Shown: positions 3,645 through 44,396, numbered from the stretch's first letter. The stretch: DNA of 44,396 nucleotides from Candidatus Vogelbacteria bacterium (GCA_050485705.1 JBJHBV010000002.1:1-44396), one strand, 5' to 3'. The notes: generated by a model from the letters alone, not told the origin. A program made the numbers and translations.

Positions 3645-3679
3645 CTCTGTGATTATACCAGTTGGGTTGATAATGTATA

Positions 3680-5434
3680 ATGGTTTCTATGAATCAGAAT
3701 TGGACTCCCTATAGGTTGGTTAATTTTTCAAGTAAAACCGACCAACTACACACCGATCCTTTGATTGGTAAACTACTTTTAGCTAGAGGTGTAGATAATC
3801 AAATCAAAGTTGATAAATTTCTTAAGCCTGACTATGAGAGAGATTTGTACGACCCTTATTTGCTCAAGGGGATAAGTGTGGCGGTTCCCAGAATTGTTCA
3901 GGCTGTTAGAAAAAATCAAAAAATAGTTATTTTTGGAGATTATGACGCTGATGGGGTGCCGGCCAGCGTTATTTTGGCTGAGTTTTTCAGAATGATTGGT
4001 TTTGATAATTTTTCGGTTTATATACCCGATCGGCATAAAGAAGCTTATGGTTTAAGTATTAAGGCTGTTGAACGTTTTGTAAAAGAAGAGGTTGAGCTTA
4101 TTATAACGGTTGATTGCGGCATAACAGCTGTTGATGAGGTTGATTATGCCAATAAGTACAATATTGATGTGATTATTACTGATCATCATTTAGTTCCGAG
4201 TGAATTACCCAAAGCTTTGGCCATTGTTAATCCTAAACAGAGAGATTGTCTTTATCCGGATAAAATGTTGGCTGGAGCGGGGGTGGCTTTCAAATTGGCG
4301 TCAGCTCTATGTCGTTGTCCGGACTTTAATATTTCTGCCGGTCAGGAAAAATGGCTTTTGGATTTGGTGGCTATTGCTACAGTCAGTGATATGGTGCCGT
4401 TGGTGGATGAAAATCGGGCTTTGGTTTATTTTGGTTTAAAAGTTTTACGTAAGACTAGGCGTTTGGGGTTATTGCGCTTGTTTGACTTGTTAAAGTTGAA
4501 ATCTAGTTTTTTAACAGAAGATGATATTGGTTTTATGATCGGGCCAAGAATTAATTCCGCCGGCAGGATGACCCATGCTTCTGAGGCCTATCTTCTTTTG
4601 ATGGCTGATAATGAATCAGAGGCTGATAAGCTGGCTAAAAACCTTGAAAAACAAAACAAAGACAGAAAAAGATTTGTTGAGGAAATCCTGTCAGAGGTTA
4701 CCGCTCGGTTTGAGGGGAAAGATTTACCATCGGTGGTGGTCTGTGGTGAAGAAAATTGGTCTATTGGGGTCTTAGGTTTGGCTGCCTCTCGTTTGTCTGA
4801 GAAGTTTAAGCGAGTCTTTTTTGTGTGGGCAAAAAACGGTCATGGTGAGATAAAAGGTTCTTGTCGGTCTGATGGATCGGTTAATTTGGTAGAGTTAATG
4901 AAAGAGGCTCATGGGGGAGATTTATTTTTAGACTTTGGTGGACATGTTGAAGCGGGAGGATTTTCGATATTACCCGGAAAATTAGACCTAATGATTGAAA
5001 GATTAAATCAGGTTTATGACTTTATCTCTAATGGAGTTGAGTCTGAGATAATTACTTTTGATGAGGAGTTATCTTTGGATGATTTATCCAGTGACCTTTT
5101 CCGGCGGGTGGGTAAATTAGCTCCTTTTGGTGTCGGTAATCCTAAGCCGGTCTTTTTGTTTAGGCAACTTGTAATTGAAGGGGTTAAGAGTTTTGGTTCA
5201 GAGGGGACCCATTTGGAGCTTATTTTTAAATCTTCTAACGGTTCTTTGGTCAAGGCCATTGCTTTTTTTTCTTGCCAAAAGGCGGTTCAAGGAGAGGTTG
5301 AAATTCATCGTTTTGGAAAATCAATTTTGAGACCGGGGATTAAGATAAATCTTTTGGCTCATTTAGAAGAGTCATATTTTGGTTTTAAAAAAGAGGAGAG
5401 GCTGAGAATAGTTGATTTGGAGATTGTCTCTTAA
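3680..5434 (+). CDS. recJ: single-stranded-DNA-specific exonuclease RecJ (DHH/DHHA1)
   Basis: DYDADGV, TVDCG, ITDHH and GGHxxAGG motifs. Confidence 0.85.
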   Translation: MVSMNQNWTPYRLVNFSSKTDQLHTDPLIGKLLLARGVDNQIKVDKFLKPDYERDLYDPYLLKGISVAVPRIVQAVRKNQKIVIFGDYDADGVPASVILAEFFRMIGFDNFSVYIPDRHKEAYGLSIKAVERFVKEEVELIITVDCGITAVDEVDYANKYNIDVIITDHHLVPSELPKALAIVNPKQRDCLYPDKMLAGAGVAFKLASALCRCPDFNISAGQEKWLLDLVAIATVSDMVPLVDENRALVYFGLKVLRKTRRLGLLRLFDLLKLKSSFLTEDDIGFMIGPRINSAGRMTHASEAYLLLMADNESEADKLAKNLEKQNKDRKRFVEEILSEVTARFEGKDLPSVVVCGEENWSIGVLGLAASRLSEKFKRVFFVWAKNGHGEIKGSCRSDGSVNLVELMKEAHGGDLFLDFGGHVEAGGFSILPGKLDLMIERLNQVYDFISNGVESEIITFDEELSLDDLSSDLFRRVGKLAPFGVGNPKPVFLFRQLVIEGVKSFGSEGTHLELIFKSSNGSLVKAIAFFSCQKAVQGEVEIHRFGKSILRPGIKINLLAHLEESYFGFKKEERLRIVDLEIVS

Positions 5435-5441
5435 ATAAGGT

Positions 5442-5900
5442 ATGATGACAAAGATGACTAAAATCTTTTTATATACCGATGGCGGTTCCAGGGGAAATCC
5501 CGGTGTCGCCGGAGCCGGAGCGGTTGTGTTGAGTGAAACGGGAGAGGTTATGATGAGGGGTCATAAATCTTTGGGTGTCGTGACCAACAATGAGGCTGAG
5601 TATTTGGCGGTAATTTTTGGCTTGGAATTGATTAAGAAAAATTTTCCAAAAGACAAACTAAAAGACTTGCTTGTGGAGTTGCGTTTGGATAGCGAGCTGG
5701 TGACCAAACAGTTGTTGGGACAATATCAATTGAAAGAAGAAAAGCTTATACCTCTTTTTATTAAAATTTGGAATTTGCGAGTCAAAGATTTTCCCCGCCT
5801 GAACATAGAGCATATACCGAGAGAAAAAAACAAGTTAGCTGATGATTTAGCCAACAAAGCCATGGATGAATCTGGTTTCGTCAATGGTAGTTTGTTATAA
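5442..5900 (+). CDS. rnhA: ribonuclease HI
   Basis: YTDGGSRGNPG, NNEAEY and ADDLAN motifs. Confidence 0.85.
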   Translation: MMTKMTKIFLYTDGGSRGNPGVAGAGAVVLSETGEVMMRGHKSLGVVTNNEAEYLAVIFGLELIKKNFPKDKLKDLLVELRLDSELVTKQLLGQYQLKEEKLIPLFIKIWNLRVKDFPRLNIEHIPREKNKLADDLANKAMDESGFVNGSLL

Positions 5901-5907
5901 TTCACCT

Positions 5908-6219
5908 ATGGAAAATTTTGATAAATTTGGTGGTCGTTCGGCGGAAAGAGAGCTTGATGAATCTTTGTCCGAATCAAAACACGGAGAGATTGAGAGAAGA
6001 GAGAAGCTCTGGAAGTTTTTAAGTGGTAATCCTAATAATATTTTAGATGCTCCGATTGAAGATTTAGAAGAGTTGATAAAAGCAGCTGAAGAGCATATGG
6101 CTAGAAGAGAGGCCATGAAAAGAGGTGAGATACCCAACGATGGCATTCCTCAAACCGCTTGGGCCAGGCAGATTTTGGATCAGCTAATAAAAGAAGGAGA
6201 AAGAAAAAAAGCGGCCTAA
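5908..6219 (+). CDS. hypothetical charged/helical protein
   Basis: ORF only. The ATG at 5908 avoids overlap with rnhA. No motif recognised. Confidence 0.4.
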   Translation: MENFDKFGGRSAERELDESLSESKHGEIERREKLWKFLSGNPNNILDAPIEDLEELIKAAEEHMARREAMKRGEIPNDGIPQTAWARQILDQLIKEGERKKAA

Positions 6220-6229
6220 CTTTAAAAAG

Positions 6230-7699
6230 ATGAAATATATATATTGTTTAATATCCGGCTTAATAGCCGGTATTTTTTGGGCTTCATTTATCACTTTTGG
6301 TTCAGCTTTTGTTGTTTTGGCTTTTTTATTGTTTGGAATAATTTTTATTGTTGGCTGGATGTTTAATAACAGGCTTATTTGGGGGATAGCCTTGATGTGT
6401 TTGGGTTTAGCTTTGGGAGTTTGGCGTTTTGAGACTTCTATAACTCCAATTTCACCGGAGTTGGAATCTGCAATTGGTGAAAGAGTTGTTTTGGCGGGGA
6501 AGATTATAACCTCACCTGATTATGGAGATAGTACCTTGCGTGTTGTTATACTCTTAGAAGATGGAGAGACAAGGGTTATGGTCACTCTACCTGTTTATAC
6601 CGATGTGTCATACGGAGATATTGTTTCTGTAGCCGGAATTTTGCAAAGACCGAGTGATTTTTTGACTGATCTGGGTAAGGAGTTTTCTTATGAGAAATAT
6701 TTACTGGCCAGACATATTCGCTATCAGCTTGTTTGGGCTTCGGTTGAAGAGCATAAAAGAGCAGAAATTTTTTCTGTGATCGGTTTTCTTTTTGGAGTAA
6801 AAGACAATTTTATTTCTGCTTTGAGTAAAATGTTGCCAGAGCCTCATTCGGCTTTGGCGGGCGGGATTCTTTTAGGGGTCAAGGATGCTTTAGGAAGAGA
6901 TTTTGAAGTTGATTTACGGCGAACCGGAATTATTCATATTGTTGTTTTGTCGGGTTATAACGTTACAGTGGTGGCCGTTTTTATTATGTTTATAATGTCT
7001 TTTTTACCCAGAAAATGGGCTTTATTTTTTTCCGGTTTTGGTATTGTTTTATTTGCCCTTTTGGTTGGTGACGGGCCAACAGTGGTTCGCTCCAGTATTA
7101 TGGCCTTATTGGCTCTTGTGGCTTTGGCTTTTGGGAGGATTTATAACGTTAGTTTAGCTTTATTGTGGGCCGGGGTCATAATGATTATTCATAGTCCAAT
7201 GATCTTGGTTTATGATATTGGCTTTCAACTTTCTTTTATTGCCACTCTCGGTTTGATTTATTTGGTTCCATTAATGGATAGATTTTTGTTTTTTCTACCA
7301 AGTATTTTCCAGGTCCGAGAATTAACAGCTACGACTTTAGCTGCTCAGGTTTCAGTTCTCCCTTGGCTTTTGTATAAAGTGGGAGAATTGTCTTTGGTTT
7401 CGGTAATGGTTAATTTTTTAATTTTACCGATTGTGCCTTTGGCGATGCTCTTGTCTTTTTTAGCTGGGGTGTTTTTCTTTATTTTTTATCCCCTAGCTTT
7501 CTTATTGTCTCTATTGGCATATGGGACGCTTCATTATATGGTGCTGGTGGTTTTATTTTTTGCTTCTGTCCCCTTTGCCACTTTGACTTTTATTAACACT
7601 CCTTTATGGTTGGTGTTTTTATTCTACGGAGGGCTGGTTTATTGGGTGACTATTAAGTCTAAAGATATCAAGCCTTATAATATGTTTGGGGACAGGTGA
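6230..7699 (+). CDS. ComEC/Rec2 DNA-uptake channel, membrane part only (lacks the MBL domain)
   Basis: Polytopic membrane protein with an OB-like insert after the first TM helices and GIIHIVVLSGYN competence-domain signature. Confidence 0.75.
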   Translation: MKYIYCLISGLIAGIFWASFITFGSAFVVLAFLLFGIIFIVGWMFNNRLIWGIALMCLGLALGVWRFETSITPISPELESAIGERVVLAGKIITSPDYGDSTLRVVILLEDGETRVMVTLPVYTDVSYGDIVSVAGILQRPSDFLTDLGKEFSYEKYLLARHIRYQLVWASVEEHKRAEIFSVIGFLFGVKDNFISALSKMLPEPHSALAGGILLGVKDALGRDFEVDLRRTGIIHIVVLSGYNVTVVAVFIMFIMSFLPRKWALFFSGFGIVLFALLVGDGPTVVRSSIMALLALVALAFGRIYNVSLALLWAGVIMIIHSPMILVYDIGFQLSFIATLGLIYLVPLMDRFLFFLPSIFQVRELTATTLAAQVSVLPWLLYKVGELSLVSVMVNFLILPIVPLAMLLSFLAGVFFFIFYPLAFLLSLLAYGTLHYMVLVVLFFASVPFATLTFINTPLWLVFLFYGGLVYWVTIKSKDIKPYNMFGDR

Positions 7700-32885: not shown

Positions 32886-33273
32886 GGGGATGATCGGCCT
32901 AGACAGTTGATCATACTTTTTATGTGCATACCGAGGGTCCGAAAAACCTCGCTAATCTCTTTCGGAGCACCATAAGTGCAAACGAAAATCAGGGGGCCGT
33001 TGTGTCTCCGTTTTCTCCAGCTTTCGCTTTAGCGTAAGGGCTGGCGTCTTACTTTTTGATTCTTGAGCGAAAAGATCAAGATGTCATACACTCAAGATAG
33101 GCAATAAGATAGTTTGGCCTTACTGCCGAAACAAACAAACTCGGTGACCGTGGATTTTTCTTGCTTATCACCACGGAAACTTAAATCATTCTTAGGGATG
33201 AAATAAACAAGATATGTATGTAGAGTCATAGGAAGTACTCATCTGCACGCGGGTTCGATTCCCGCCATCTCCA
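32886..33273 (+). ncRNA. ssrA: tmRNA
   Basis: 5' GGGGATG pairs with 3' CATCTCC, including a G3-U pair. T-arm is GCGGG-TTCGATT-CCCGC. Tag reading frame 32978-33037 encodes ANENQGAVVSPFSPAFALA then stop. CCA is not encoded. Confidence 0.9.
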
Positions 33274-33275
33274 CT
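33256..33275 (+). repeat. direct repeat copy 1 (tmRNA 3' end)
   Basis: CGATTCCCGCCATCTCCACT, identical to 33467-33486. Confidence 0.9.
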
Positions 33276-33466
33276 TGTTAAAACATTAGCGCCCTTTTTT
33301 GGGCGCTTTTGTTTTTTAAGTGGAGATGGAGCAAAACAACTACTTGTTTTGCGTCGGTAATCGAAGCCACGCAGTATATCCTGAGCCTAGCGAAGGATAC
33401 GAGTGGCCGTCCAGGAACCTTAGTATTTTGTGAATACTTGAAACAAAATACTTAGAATTCCGGGGA
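33276..33466 (+). mobile_element. 191-bp structured insert between duplicated ssrA 3' ends (integration scar or miniature element)
   Basis: Bounded by 20-nt perfect direct repeats. Contains an inverted copy of the repeat end (33318-33329) and hairpins at 33331-33352 and 33422-33452. Confidence 0.5.
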
Positions 33467-39723: not shown

Positions 39724-40392
39724 ATGGCCAGAAAAGAGGACAAACAAAAAGCCTTAGAGCTTCGTAAAAAAGGATATAGTTATTCTCAAATTAAAGAAAA
39801 GCTTGGTTTGAGTAAAAGTACGCTGTCTGGCTGGCTTTCTGATTATCCTTTATCTGCTAAAAGAATACAGATGTTGCGTGATAAAAACCCTAGAAGGATA
39901 GAAAAATTTCGCAATACTATGAAAAAAAAGAAAGATGAGCGCTTAGAAAAAGTTTATGATAAAGTAGGAAAAGATATCGGGGTTTTCAGTAAAAAAGATA
40001 TTTTTGTAGCTGGCTGGTTTCTTTATTGGGGAGAGGGTTTAAAGACTTCTTCACCCACTTTTGGTTTGTCTAATACTGATCCAAATATGATTAGATTTTT
40101 CTTGAGATGGGTTGAGATTCTTGGAGTGCCGAAAGAAAAAGTGACAATAACTCTGCATTTATATTCAGATATGGATATAAATAAAGAAATTTATTTTTGG
40201 TCAAAAGAATTGTCTTTGCCTAAAAGTTGTTTCCGTAAGCCAGTTATAAAGAAGACCAAACTATCAGGTCTGACTTATAAGAATGGTTTTGGACATGGTA
40301 CTTGTCATGTGCGTATTTACAACCGTGATTGGGCGGAGTATATTCTAAAGGGTTTACAATATATCAGAGAAGTCGAAAGCAAGCGCCTATAG
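39724..40392 (+). CDS. HTH-domain protein with LAGLIDADG-like C-terminal region
   Basis: N-terminal KKGYSYSQIKEKLGLSKSTLSGWL helix-turn-helix. AGWFLYWGEG resembles a single LAGLIDADG motif. Confidence 0.55.
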   Translation: MARKEDKQKALELRKKGYSYSQIKEKLGLSKSTLSGWLSDYPLSAKRIQMLRDKNPRRIEKFRNTMKKKKDERLEKVYDKVGKDIGVFSKKDIFVAGWFLYWGEGLKTSSPTFGLSNTDPNMIRFFLRWVEILGVPKEKVTITLHLYSDMDINKEIYFWSKELSLPKSCFRKPVIKKTKLSGLTYKNGFGHGTCHVRIYNRDWAEYILKGLQYIREVESKRL

Positions 40393-40457
40393 CTCAATTG
40401 GTAGAGCACCCAGCTTATACCTGGGAGGTTTTCCTGGTTCGAGTCCAGGTGGGCGCA
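40383..40457 (+). tRNA. tRNA with anticodon UAU (Ile, reads AUA)
   Basis: Acceptor GCGCCTA/TGGGCGC. D-arm GCTC-AATTGGTA-GAGC. Anticodon arm CCCAG-CTTATAC-CTGGG. T-arm CCTGG-TTCGAGT-CCAGG. Seven-nt variable loop. CCA not encoded. Confidence 0.8.
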
Positions 40458-40462
40458 CTAGA

Positions 40463-42589: not shown

Positions 42590-42616
42590 TGTCTTATTGT
42601 AACAAAGACAAAGAGT

Positions 42617-42805
42617 TTAAGGATTTTTTCGTCGGAAATTACCTTTGTTGAAGTTTTTAGAATTTAAAGATTGTTTGTACTTAAAGTCTGCCTGGGTCCT
42701 AAAGGAAGCATTACCCGGTCTTTTGCTTTGATTCATTTTGTTACGATTGTTACCTTTCATGAGGTTGATTATAGCAAACCAGAGTAAAAATATGTAGTTT
42801 ATCAT
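42617..42805 (-). CDS. small very basic protein, hypothetical
   Basis: ORF ends 27 nt upstream of recG. N-terminal hydrophobic segment and Lys/Arg/Asn-rich tail. No family recognised. Confidence 0.3.
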   Translation of the reverse strand: MINYIFLLWFAIINLMKGNNRNKMNQSKRPGNASFRTQADFKYKQSLNSKNFNKGNFRRKNP

Positions 42806-42851
42806 TTGGTTTTTGTGCTTCTGTATCCAGCTTTATGGGGTACATATTAAG

Positions 42852-42938
42852 TGCGGAGAGGGAGGGATTCAAACTTTGTACCTCAAGCCTTGTAAGGGTA
42901 TTCTAGCAGATTTTCAGATTGGTTTTCGATGTCTCCGC
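42852..42938 (-). other. tRNA-like element: 7-bp acceptor-like closing stem and tRNA 3'-end-like tail, but no cloverleaf
   Basis: Minus strand: GCGGAGA...GTTTGAATCCCTCCCTCTCCGC-A. D, anticodon and T stems cannot be drawn. Confidence 0.4.
42853..42869. repeat. direct repeat R1 (tRNA 3'-end-like)
   Basis: GCGGAGAGGGAGGGATT matches 43870-43886 at 16 of 17 positions. Confidence 0.8.
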
Positions 42939-43097
42939 ATAGGTCTTACTTTTTCGTCAAATACCAACAAATACCAATTTTTTGGGTATCAAATGCGACA
43001 ATACTACAAATGAGACACAAAACAGGGATATTTGGGAGTGTCTCATTTACGTCTCATAATATCAATATTAGTTGCTTTTTAGTTCTAATATCCAACC

Positions 43098-43703
43098 TTA
43101 AGCTACCACTAGATTGATAAATTGTTCTCGTGTCTCAGGTGTTTTCTCGTAGTGCATTGGTATTACCTTCGCAATCTTTTTGAATTTTTTAGTAAATTCA
43201 AATGCTTCTTGCGGACCAAATGTATAAAATGTTCCAACTGGCAATAGCGCAACATCTACTTCGAGGTTTGAAACATCAATACCAGATTCGTAGAACATAT
43301 CGCCTGCAAAATAGATTGTTTGATCCTCTGCTGTGATCAGGAAGCCAAAATTTTCCTGAAGGGGTGCAGATACATTTGGACCGTGGTCCACATTGAAAAA
43401 TTGCACCGTAATATCTTCGATAGCTACTGTATCGCCAACTTTTACTCGAGTGATATCAGTGGCAAGATTTTCTTCACCAAGGGTTTCAATGCACTCCTGA
43501 TTCAAATAGAGTTTTTTAGGTGAGAGCGCCTTGATCTGTTCAAGGGAGAAGTGGTCGCCGTGGATGTGTGATACGAGCATTGCATCTACAGTAACCCCTC
43601 GAAGCTTTTCAACTGGAGTTTTATTGCCAATATCAAAAGCCAAAAGAAAACCCTTGCTAGTTTCCAAAACAAAGCCTGATTGCTCAAATTTAGTGAGTCT
43701 CAT
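43098..43703 (-). CDS. small MBL-fold metal-dependent hydrolase
   Basis: SHIHGDHF motif, about 200 aa. Confidence 0.8.
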   Translation of the reverse strand: MRLTKFEQSGFVLETSKGFLLAFDIGNKTPVEKLRGVTVDAMLVSHIHGDHFSLEQIKALSPKKLYLNQECIETLGEENLATDITRVKVGDTVAIEDITVQFFNVDHGPNVSAPLQENFGFLITAEDQTIYFAGDMFYESGIDVSNLEVDVALLPVGTFYTFGPQEAFEFTKKFKKIAKVIPMHYEKTPETREQFINLVVA

Positions 43704-43867
43704 AAACTTATTTTAACAAAAAATCAAGCTTAAATAAAGGATTTTCAGAGCGATAGTTACCAACACTTCAGGCTCCCGAGACTTTCTAGACTCCTTGGAC
43801 GATCTGCGTCATTCCTTGTGTATATCAGCTAATAAAAAAGGAATACATATGCAACTACTTAGTTCTC

Positions 43868-43948
43868 TTGGCGGAGAGGGAGAGATTAGGGTCAGCTCAC
43901 CTCAATATTTTAGTTCGCTTCTCTCTTAAAATATTGGGTGGCTCCCTC
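43868..43948 (-). other. tRNA-like element ending in an encoded CCA, with a long central hairpin in place of a cloverleaf
   Basis: Minus strand: GGAGGGA...CAATATTTTA-loop-TAAAATATTG...TAATCTCTCCCTCTCC-G-CCA. Confidence 0.4.
43870..43886. repeat. direct repeat R2
   Basis: GCGGAGAGGGAGAGATT. Confidence 0.8.
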
Positions 43949-44396
43949 CTTACAGGAGCTGTACACCTTTTGGATATTTTCATTACATAAAAATATCTCA
44001 AAAGGTCTTGCAAAGCTCCAAGTATTCGCTTCTCACCCGGGCTCGTCAGTAACAAATTTTTTACAAAAATTTATCTGACTCCGCCTTTCGAATCCCACCC
44101 TCACCATCTTAGCTGTCAATTTTAATACAGCTCCAAGTATTCGCTATATTAAAATAGCCAGTGCGGTGAAATTATATCCTTTGCGCGAACCCATTTTGAA
44201 TAAAACACCTGACGCGCCTCGGGCGCGGAGCGTTAGCGGAGCGCGCCCGAGGCGCGGTCATCCAATTTCCTTTCGGAAGCGGAAGTTACATTTGGCGGAG
44301 AAGTTATGACCGTTGCTCGAACTTTCTTTGACCAATCGCGAAGCGATTGAATCAACCAACAACGCGCGGAGCGCGTGGTGACTTTGTACTTTTGCG
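43949..44396. other. ORF-free, hairpin-dense segment with GC-rich stems (candidate large structured RNA or mobile-element end), truncated by the window edge
   Basis: No ORF of 60 aa or more in any frame from 43717 onward. The 14-bp perfect stem 44213-44226/44241-44254, the GAA and GGA triloop hairpins at 44332-44348 and 44361-44375, the 17-nt direct repeats at 44013 and 44128, and the tRNA 3'-like end at 44086-44105 all lie inside this span. Confidence 0.45.

Follow-up and report, generated by a model that had tools for sequence, protein, structure and literature searches.

Duplicated tRNA-Ser-like ends and a conserved hairpin module at the end of a Candidatus Vogelbacteria contig: a candidate island edge

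The last 680 bp of a 44,396-nt contig of Candidatus Vogelbacteria (the window, which here denotes the whole stretch of DNA analysed) contain no long ORF and are rich in hairpins and repeats. Is this region one structured RNA gene, or a composite of other origin? An earlier reading (the original prediction) had offered a large ornate RNA of unknown class, a guide or retron-like RNA, and stacked integration scars as candidates. The contig tail is interpreted here, with a little over even confidence, as the edge of a variable genomic island, of which a hairpin module would be a cis-acting or transcribed part, rather than as a single RNA gene. The question is of interest because the CPR (Patescibacteria) have tiny genomes and their gene exchange is little understood.

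Extent and hairpins of the contig end

The window is the entire contig and its right edge at 44396 is an assembly break; the truncation suspected at this edge is thus the end of the assembly, which cuts the hairpin module. The hairpins, the repeats and the lack of long ORFs were all recovered on direct reading of the sequence, most of the original coordinates being about 1 nt too low. The longest ORF found comprises 52 aa, in keeping with the claim that none reaches 60 aa. On the minus strand two frames (46 and 53 aa) are open up to the contig end; both are broken by a 5-nt indel in the homologue L001, a contig of a Candidatus Paceibacterota MAG that was found with a 28-mer from the last 100 nt of the window. 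Within the last 102 nt (44295-44396, the conserved block) there is no conserved coding frame, every frame being disrupted between the window and L001 by the 5-nt indel and a stop codon. In a hunt for a mis-called ORF, a six-frame chimera of the block yielded nothing at E up to 1 against 5.8 billion proteins. Single-nt indels are scattered across the hairpin module.

The folding z-scores of the region against shuffled sequence are -6.7 (plus strand) and -6.1 (minus strand); as these are equal on both strands, assignment of a strand by folding failed. The last 500 nt hold 5 of the 26 perfect hairpins of at least 8 bp in the window. The observation as such is confirmed as real and non-random. Searches with Rfam 15 agreed with the statement that no known family is present, yielding nothing for the region either at the gathering score or at E up to 10, apart from chance hairpins of the miRNA and snoRNA type in 42600-44396 and in L001 650-1500 (best match E 0.0067, 27 bits versus a gathering score of 70). 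On the whole window Rfam recognized only tmRNA (32886-33276) and tRNA-Ile (40383-40457), and on the entire L001 it found no match.

Part of the region is ordinary upstream sequence. Relatives were collected with homologues of the MBL-fold protein encoded in the window (closer relatives, among them L009-L012) and with homologues of the nucleotidyltransferase (NTase) of L001 (L015-L022). Window positions 43102-43855 match L009 6602-5849 and L010 at 82% (blastn), the match ending at 43855. The matching stretch takes in the MBL gene together with the 150 nt preceding it, so that the first 140 nt or so of the region are the ordinary leader of that gene (43704-43855, minus strand, promoter or leader), outside the hairpin element. 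If the remainder were likewise ordinary intergenic DNA, that is, terminators and chance palindromes with neither a shared origin nor a function, the plain MBL upstream sequence would fit, as would the bidirectional terminator-like hairpins that are common in the contig. This explanation is nevertheless considered very improbable, given that the conserved block matches three contigs at E 1e-26 to 1e-32 in differing gene contexts, that the pair of tRNA-like repeats described below has an expected count of 0.01, and that both the density of hairpins and the folding z-scores lie well outside chance.

A GC-rich palindrome is located at 44210-44259. Its arms (44213-44227 and 44242-44256) form a stem of 15 bp with 100% complementarity around a 14-nt loop, GAGCGTTAGCGGAG, and by eye the stem lengthens to 18 bp via GAC/GTC; a 14-bp stem extendable to about 17 bp, with a 14-nt loop, had been predicted. 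The 15-bp stem has a GC content of 93% and is the sole one of its kind in the contig, whereas the other long perfect hairpins have 30-46% GC; several of these consist of an A-run, a short GC core and a T-run and are terminator-like. On the minus strand TGTTTTATT follows directly after the palindrome, and this T-run gives it the look of a terminator for that strand. Palindrome and T-run together probably act as a minus-strand terminator, to judge from their sequence; a terminator scan did not call the site, where stem and T-run are present and the loop is of 14 nt. The loop contains GTTAGCG, and its TAGCG motif may be of the kind found in CS-6-like plasmid single-strand origins; integron attC cores are a further candidate likeness for the region. 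Neither likeness was relied on. The palindrome also resembles, by eye and unscored, a GC-rich stretch of L001, CGCGCGCCTCG...CTCGCTAACCGCTCGC, in its arms and loop, but is itself inverted relative to the block.

The heptamers CGGTCAT (44255-44261) and ATGACCG (44306-44312), read directly in the window, had been regarded as a closing stem; they are present as described but have no counterpart in L001. An AT hairpin of 10 bp with a 14-nt loop (43903-43936) is common to the window, L001 and L015. Its matches are L001 1364-1433 (E 0.004) and, in L015, 1954-1982 and 1993-2021 (E 0.001); the pair at its foot is A-T in the window and G-C in L001. Two further AT-rich hairpins are window-specific insertions, namely one at 43964-44004 (hairpin proper at 43968-44002), which is missing from L001 and L015, and TCAGTAACAAATTTTT-TAC-AAAAATTTATCTGA at 44047-44079. 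The predicted 17-nt direct repeat, AGCTCCAAGTATTCGCT, is borne out as an exact local duplication at 44014-44030 and 44129-44145; a related motif of AGCGAA type is tandemly duplicated in L015 (39 nt). A weak, degenerate second copy of the block start occupies 44162-44205 on the minus strand (nhmmer E 0.0015 and 0.017; blastn 79% over 28 nt) and carries a promoter-like TTCAAA-18-TATAAT, scored by a promoter scan at 10 of 12 matches from 44200 to 44171. The hexamer GCGGAG, said to occur about seven times from 42853 onwards, does recur, but with six copies on the plus strand (42853-44366), next to two of CTCCGC in the same stretch and among 12 copies of GCGGAG in the whole 44.4 kb. By its sequence the recurring hexamer is largely the reverse complement of the tRNA-Ser 3' end.

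Conserved block and hairpin module

The conserved block (44295-44396, minus strand) is cut by the contig end and contains two triloop hairpins that were read directly, CAATCGC-GAA-GCGATTG at 44333-44349 and ACGCGC-GGA-GCGCGT at 44362-44376. It matches L001 1144-1240 at 87% (E 2e-30 to 2e-32), L015 1789-1880 at 86% and L017 1-97, a contig start, at 84%, so that the comparison by BLASTN with relatives, which had been proposed as a check, found it in three other Paceibacterota contigs. These three loci are the only carriers beyond the window. The flanks of the block barely align between the window and L001, and in homologous loci the block always adjoins a direct repeat derived from tRNA-Ser. The two triloop hairpins vary in their loops only (GAA/GGA and GGA/CGA), with one stem position in L015 left uncompensated, and alignments of the homologues showed no covariation in the block itself. 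GCGAAGC and GCGGAGC may form stable DNA mini-hairpins with GNA triloops; this was not relied on either. Among the other searches, a scan of a genome collection with the 28-mer from the block matched L001 only; a metagenome scan with a gapped 23-base pattern, probably too strict, gave two chance matches (L002 and L003); five scans of viral contigs with block and module patterns found nothing; and neither the module, compared with phages by BLAST, nor the window tail, compared with plasmids, had a match. The window MBL protein was likewise looked up by its exact sequence with the aim of extending the contig, and no entry was returned.

The idea that the 680 bp form one large ornate RNA is not supported. 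Good conservation is confined to the last 102 nt, another part is the upstream sequence of the MBL gene, and the central 400 nt or so (43892-44294) differ between genomes by large insertions and duplications and are fast-evolving filler. The sense in which GC-rich stems mark functional RNA is likewise weakened: the stems are there, but the GC-rich part matches contigs that are GC-richer by eye (GC content being uncomputed), which fits imported DNA. GC-rich hairpins at the contig end of an AT-rich genome can thus be imported island DNA or remnants of attachment sites instead of an RNA gene.

In the homologues the block ends a hairpin-rich noncoding module of about 500 nt, of which the window holds the last fifth. 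The full module corresponds to L001 759-1290; from L001 1143 down to 759 it continues with GTACGCATTCGGG and then with a long hairpin, CCCAAA[A/C]CAAAGAAAT. Since the homologues run for some 400 nt further through the module and into cargo genes, the suggestion that the genes of an element lie beyond 44396 is likely to be right. An alignment of L001 741-1246 with L015 1385-1886 and with a sequence combined from both L017 ends gave an identity of about 86-87% for the module, versus about 82% for the alignment that includes the NTase gene. The two L017 ends overlap exactly over 103 nt in inverted orientation, either because two inverted copies exist or because the assembly went wrong at the long hairpin. 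Nearly all of the 155 pairs that RNAalifold predicted in the module belong to local hairpins. At ten of them both bases have changed in a compensatory manner among the three sequences; six of the ten fall in a single 17-bp stem with 40 invariant nucleotides at its apex. As these ten pairs have changed on both sides and were yet kept, the hairpins are maintained.

One explanation of these data is that the module (L001 759-1290, represented in the window by its last 102 nt and the terminator) is a new structured noncoding RNA on the window minus strand, which might serve to regulate the island, or function in transfer or defence, the island being no more than the place where it resides. The compensatory pairs, the higher conservation than in adjacent coding DNA, the terminator-like hairpin after the block on that strand in both L001 and the window, and the lack of an Rfam match, by which the RNA would be new, argue for it. 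So does the consensus fold, which is better on the strand equivalent to the window minus strand (-189 versus -166 kcal/mol), with more wobble pairs (51 versus 23) and fewer broken pairs (11 versus 17). The folding z-score of about -9.4 is a further point in favour; after shuffling controls, however, both strands are alike in this respect (-9.39 versus -9.27). Moreover, the fold is a series of near-perfect local palindromes with little supported long-range pairing, equally typical of DNA palindromes, and near-perfect palindromes can keep the symmetry of their arms mutationally, by template switching at the DNA level. Other points against this explanation are the lack of covariation and the uncompensated L015 mismatch in the block, the absence of a promoter-like site upstream of the module, the rearranged state of the window copy (GC element inverted, part of the block duplicated) and the small sample of three to four sequences. 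A noncoding RNA of this kind is given roughly one chance in several and regarded as possible but doubtful.

The island model alone does not explain the conservation of the module and the ten compensatory pairs, which point to a function. Probably the module serves its island either in cis or as a transcript, and its stems would be under selection. The conserved, compensated hairpin module is the one new item at this locus and is absent from RNA databases. That it represents a new class of large structured RNA in small Paceibacterota cargo islands, expressed from the minus strand beside a tRNA-Ser-like end, is unlikely; if true, the module RNA might act as a decoy or regulator tied to the NTase or MBL-fold cargo, or in island transfer.

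Several other candidates were tried and dropped. Neither the module as a decayed recombinase gene nor the region as pseudogenes of the neighbour genes in L001 received any support from tblastn, which returned nothing in both cases. A boxA-like motif, TTTCTTTGACCAA, had raised the reading of an rRNA operon leader, which was rejected as no rRNA lies downstream in the homologues; L001, L015 and L017 run into hairpins and protein genes. A motif upstream of recombinase genes (GAGTATGTGACG...CTGCATAG...GTCTGTCATTAATTA) is unrelated to the block. The retron or guide-RNA interpretation is not supported either: neither a reverse transcriptase (RT) nor IscB or TnpB is encoded beside the complete module in L001, L015 and L017, the contigs being short, and L016, the only relative with an RT (RT and bAvd genes), is without the module.

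tRNA-Ser-like ends and variable neighbourhoods

A 23-mer resembling a tRNA-Ser 3' end and ending in CCA, CCCTAATCTCTCCCTCTCCGCCA, is located at 43869-43891 on the minus strand (copy 1, 17-mer core at 43871-43887), and a near-identical one, TTTGAATCCCTCCCTCTCCGCAC, at 42851-42873 on the same strand (copy 2), past the MBL gene and outside the noted 680 bp; together they form direct repeats that bracket the MBL gene and are similar to attachment sites. The 17-mer GCGGAGAGGGAG[G/A]GATT occurs only at 42853 and 43871 (expected count of such a pair 0.01). Reverse-complemented, each copy corresponds to tRNA-Ser 3' ends from the T-loop to CCA, such as that of L016, TTCGAATCCCCCTCTCTCCGCCA. When the 3' end of a true tRNA-Ser was used in a fuzzy search, only these two and the real or derived tRNA-Ser ends in the other loci were found. 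Copy 1 aligns to L015 2052-2071 at 90%. An isolated end resembling a tRNA 3' half had been predicted and is present once in the window, at 44087-44106 on the plus strand, as an inverted copy of the stretch from T-loop to acceptor 3' end, TTCGAATCCCACCCTCACCA; it has no matching 5' strand of the T-stem and is thus a fragment. Its counterparts are TTCGAATCTCAC in L001 (minus strand, 1299-1306) and TTCGAATCCCTAC in L015 (minus strand, 181-188 and 1934-1941). ARAGORN and Rfam RF00005 detected no tRNA gene at 42851-42945, at 43869-44106, in L001 or in the L015 repeats. The likeness to tRNA-Ser is significant only over the 3' 19-23 nt, the z-scores of whole units (window unit 1 and L001) being 1.4-2.4, and 5' strands of the T-stem are missing from the tRNA-like units.

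The copies are located where homology with relatives breaks, which supports the stacked integration scars of the original prediction. The L009 homology of the MBL gene begins 14 nt outside copy 1, at 43855. On the other side, window 42866-42987 matches L009 12263-12141 at 83% and the match ends exactly after GTTTGAATC, beyond which the sequences diverge; the break at 42866 lies inside the T-loop motif of copy 2. Direct repeats of a tRNA 3' segment thus flank a segment that is variable among relatives, as in islands integrated at tRNA genes. At 85-92% protein identity the MBL genes of relatives have different neighbours (peptidase S66, a large serine recombinase and others).

The arrangement is seen most clearly in L015, where positions 124-243 and 1877-1996 are 100% identical direct repeats (120 nt) that run on to ...TTCGAATCCCTCTCTCTCCGCCA. 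Between them lies a segment of 1.6 kb in which a pyrophosphatase (PPase) gene and the NTase gene are accompanied by roughly 480 nt of hairpin sequence and by the block. Beyond the second repeat, the sequence is similar to that which follows the true tRNA-Ser(gga) gene in L016. L001 and L015 are homologous over 1116 nt (82%) up to the block boundary, which is also exactly where L017 starts. Window 43868-43934 is co-linear with L001 1364-1433 and L015 1954-2071 (E 0.001-0.004), with large indels, so that the order in the window is that of L015: block, repeat segment derived from tRNA-Ser and ending in CCA, then unrelated DNA. The repeat segment measures about 425 nt in the window, but only about 180-195 nt in L001 and in L015; the surplus is made up of the two AT hairpins, the 17-nt duplication, the inverted tRNA end, the second copy of the block start and the GC palindrome.

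Large serine recombinase genes recur beside the same neighbour genes in other relatives. In L009-L012 one of 424-440 aa is immediately upstream of the MBL gene, on the side where the window carries its hairpin region; in L016, L021 and L022 such a gene comes directly after the NTase gene and takes the position of the module; and in L018 it lies two genes upstream of the NTase gene. The recombinases beside MBL genes and those beside NTase genes belong to one family (55-68% identity). The window tail, L001, L015 and L017 have no recombinase gene. The contigs L018, L019 and L020 end about 100-250 nt past the NTase gene.

It might be proposed instead that the block is the promoter or control region of a tRNA-Ser or tRNA-Ser-like gene, with 44294-43869 as a decayed or expanded copy, that is, a duplication of a stable RNA. 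Promoter-like hexamers do occupy the same position at the block end in L015 (TTCAAA-18-CATAAT), in the window (GTCAAA-18-CATAAC, minus strand, 44332 to 44303) and in the second copy within the window, and they are followed by a GC-rich stretch, in L015 18 nt on, GGAGAGAGAG...CTCTCTCTCCGCCA. The hexamers are weak, however, and were not called in the blocks of L001 and the window; no block precedes the true tRNA-Ser(gga) gene in L016; the block and the tRNA-like segment of L001 have a terminator-like hairpin between them; and no tRNA-like unit is recognized as a tRNA. This proposal is judged improbable.

The best reading is that of stacked integration junctions at a tRNA-Ser site together with the terminal part of a hairpin module carried by an island. 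From the contig end along the minus strand, 44396-44295 would be the last 102 nt of the module, its remainder and the island cargo lying beyond the assembly break; 44294-43869 would be a segment similar to an attachment site that ends in a copy of the tRNA-Ser 3' end (T-loop to CCA). It would be followed by the MBL gene with its own upstream region, by the second tRNA-Ser end (42873-42851) and by the core chromosome (RecG). Circular island DNA may have recombined with the tRNA-Ser-derived site via shared sequence; each insertion would have duplicated the site, and later insertions and deletions would have left tandem, decaying junctions. The acting enzyme may have been a large serine recombinase of the family described above, which is not directly linked to the module. 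Counting against the island reading, there is neither an intact tRNA-Ser gene nor a recombinase gene on this contig, neither repeat of L015 was called as a tRNA, and large serine recombinases normally act without creating long direct repeats.

Comparison with known systems

The palindrome and T-run at 44210-44259 (minus strand) share their layout with intrinsic terminators, and so does the counterpart that follows the block in L001, a hairpin whose stem is preceded by an A-run and followed by a T-run. The window element differs from the other terminator-like hairpins of the contig in its 15-18-bp stem of 93% GC with a 14-nt loop, and the sequence of its loop recurs in L001, though arranged differently. 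With the large RNAs GOLLD, ROOL and HEARO the module has in common a length of about 500 nt, many hairpins, a noncoding nature and a location in mobile or variable DNA near tRNA-like sequence; unlike in those, the fold consists mostly of serial local hairpins, and Rfam gave no match at E up to 10. REP/BIME, Correia and MITE-like elements are similar in being noncoding, with near-perfect GC-rich palindromes and compensated stems; there are also signs of more than one copy per genome (the inverted L017 ends and the partial copy in the window), and assemblies break nearby. The present element differs from these in that it occupies one locus per contig, combines several different palindromes and has no identified target-site duplications or terminal inverted repeats.

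The closest comparison is with tRNA-integrated islands and tycheposons. Tycheposons comprise tandem insertions at tRNA sites with partial tRNAs and decayed elements, and some of them bear a large serine recombinase (bioRxiv 10.1101/2020.12.28.424599); displaced tRNA fragments mark island ends in Islander (PMC4383910). The present locus differs in that an intact target tRNA and a recombinase gene are absent from both the window and L015, in that the L015 repeat is long (>150 nt, of which 120 are identical) and not a functional tRNA, in the growth of the window junction segment to about 425 nt by hairpins, and in its CPR host. It shares with these islands the tRNA 3'-end direct repeats at the ends of a variable segment, the stacked and decayed junctions and a cargo of small accessory enzymes (MBL-fold, NTase, PPase and peptidases), as well as, with tycheposons, the recombinase type that is found in its relatives. 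The signature of tRNA islands, with duplicated tRNA ends, stacked junctions and swapped cargo, is thus seen in several Paceibacterota genomes, alongside a single family of large serine recombinases. If the hairpin module is a cis-acting site or an RNA of such islands, it would provide a handle on the mobile DNA of this lineage and a marker for its islands.

Noncoding stretch downstream of the MBL-fold gene

The MBL-fold protein of the window (43098-43703, minus strand) comprises 201 aa when counted from the first ATG, versus 211 aa in almost all relatives, and its true start may therefore be an upstream non-ATG codon. The precomputed Pfam hits of this protein included a faint match to Anti-Pycsar_Apyc1. 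The cargo companions of the gene in relatives were HIT, peptidase S51, peptidase S66 and serine hydrolase genes.

A noncoding stretch of 124 nt downstream of the gene (42866-42987, minus strand) showed an identity of 83% to positions 12141-12263 of L009, a relative's contig with a homologue of the MBL-fold gene, and to L010, another such contig. Because the counterpart in L009 and L010 lies 5.5 kb farther from the MBL-fold gene, past two DNA methyltransferase genes, the window looks as if it had arisen by deletion from the larger island of L009. At the start of the stretch is GCGGAGA, a sequence able to pair with TCTCCGC in the att-like copy of the tRNA-Ser end; the stretch also contains the extended -10 promoter-like sequence TGCTAGAAT (minus strand). 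A hairpin of 11 bp with a 19-nt loop (43008-43048) is located 50 nt past the stop codon of the MBL-fold gene, and CAAATACCAA occurs twice in tandem farther down the minus strand (42958-42977). Elsewhere in the window, the tRNA-Ile gene (40383-40458) has the anticodon TAT, an unusual bacterial way of reading AUA, and its first 10 nt are overlapped by an ORF of 222 aa (39724-40392) with a helix-turn-helix-like N-terminus.

Possible rearrangements in contigs carrying the hairpin module

The ends of L017, a contig of 4.45 kb with the hairpin-rich noncoding module, share an exact overlap of 103 nt in inverted orientation (1-254 and 4350-4452), which spans the module's long hairpin and represents either two inverted copies or an assembly folded back at the palindrome. 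If the two copies are real, they flank the intervening HTH, Schlafen-like ATPase, AAA_18, PPase and NTase genes. In L001, a Candidatus Paceibacterota contig with the same module, an ORF of 95 aa (1396-1683), the first codons of which are encoded by a tRNA-Ser-end-like sequence, ends in ...GTSVLDI and directly precedes a complete methyltransferase gene. This ORF resembles the N-terminal part of a SAM methyltransferase, broken off at motif I; it is probably a partial gene produced by rearrangement.

Recombinase genes and the L016 locus

A conserved motif, GAGTATG[T/C]GACG ... CTGCATAG(A)CTATGCA ... GTCTGTCATTAATTAT, was found before four genes of the large serine recombinase family (loci listed: L009, L011, L016, L021 and L022). 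The motif could serve as a promoter or as a site of recombination, and is unrelated to the conserved 102-nt block (44295-44396) in which the module ends. The L016 locus, from which the hairpin module is absent, has genes for a large serine recombinase, a tRNA_anti-like protein, a reverse transcriptase and bAvd adjoining the NTase gene (3658-7245), and a true tRNA-Ser(gga) gene 2.8 kb upstream. The combination of reverse transcriptase and bAvd genes suggests a diversity-generating retroelement.
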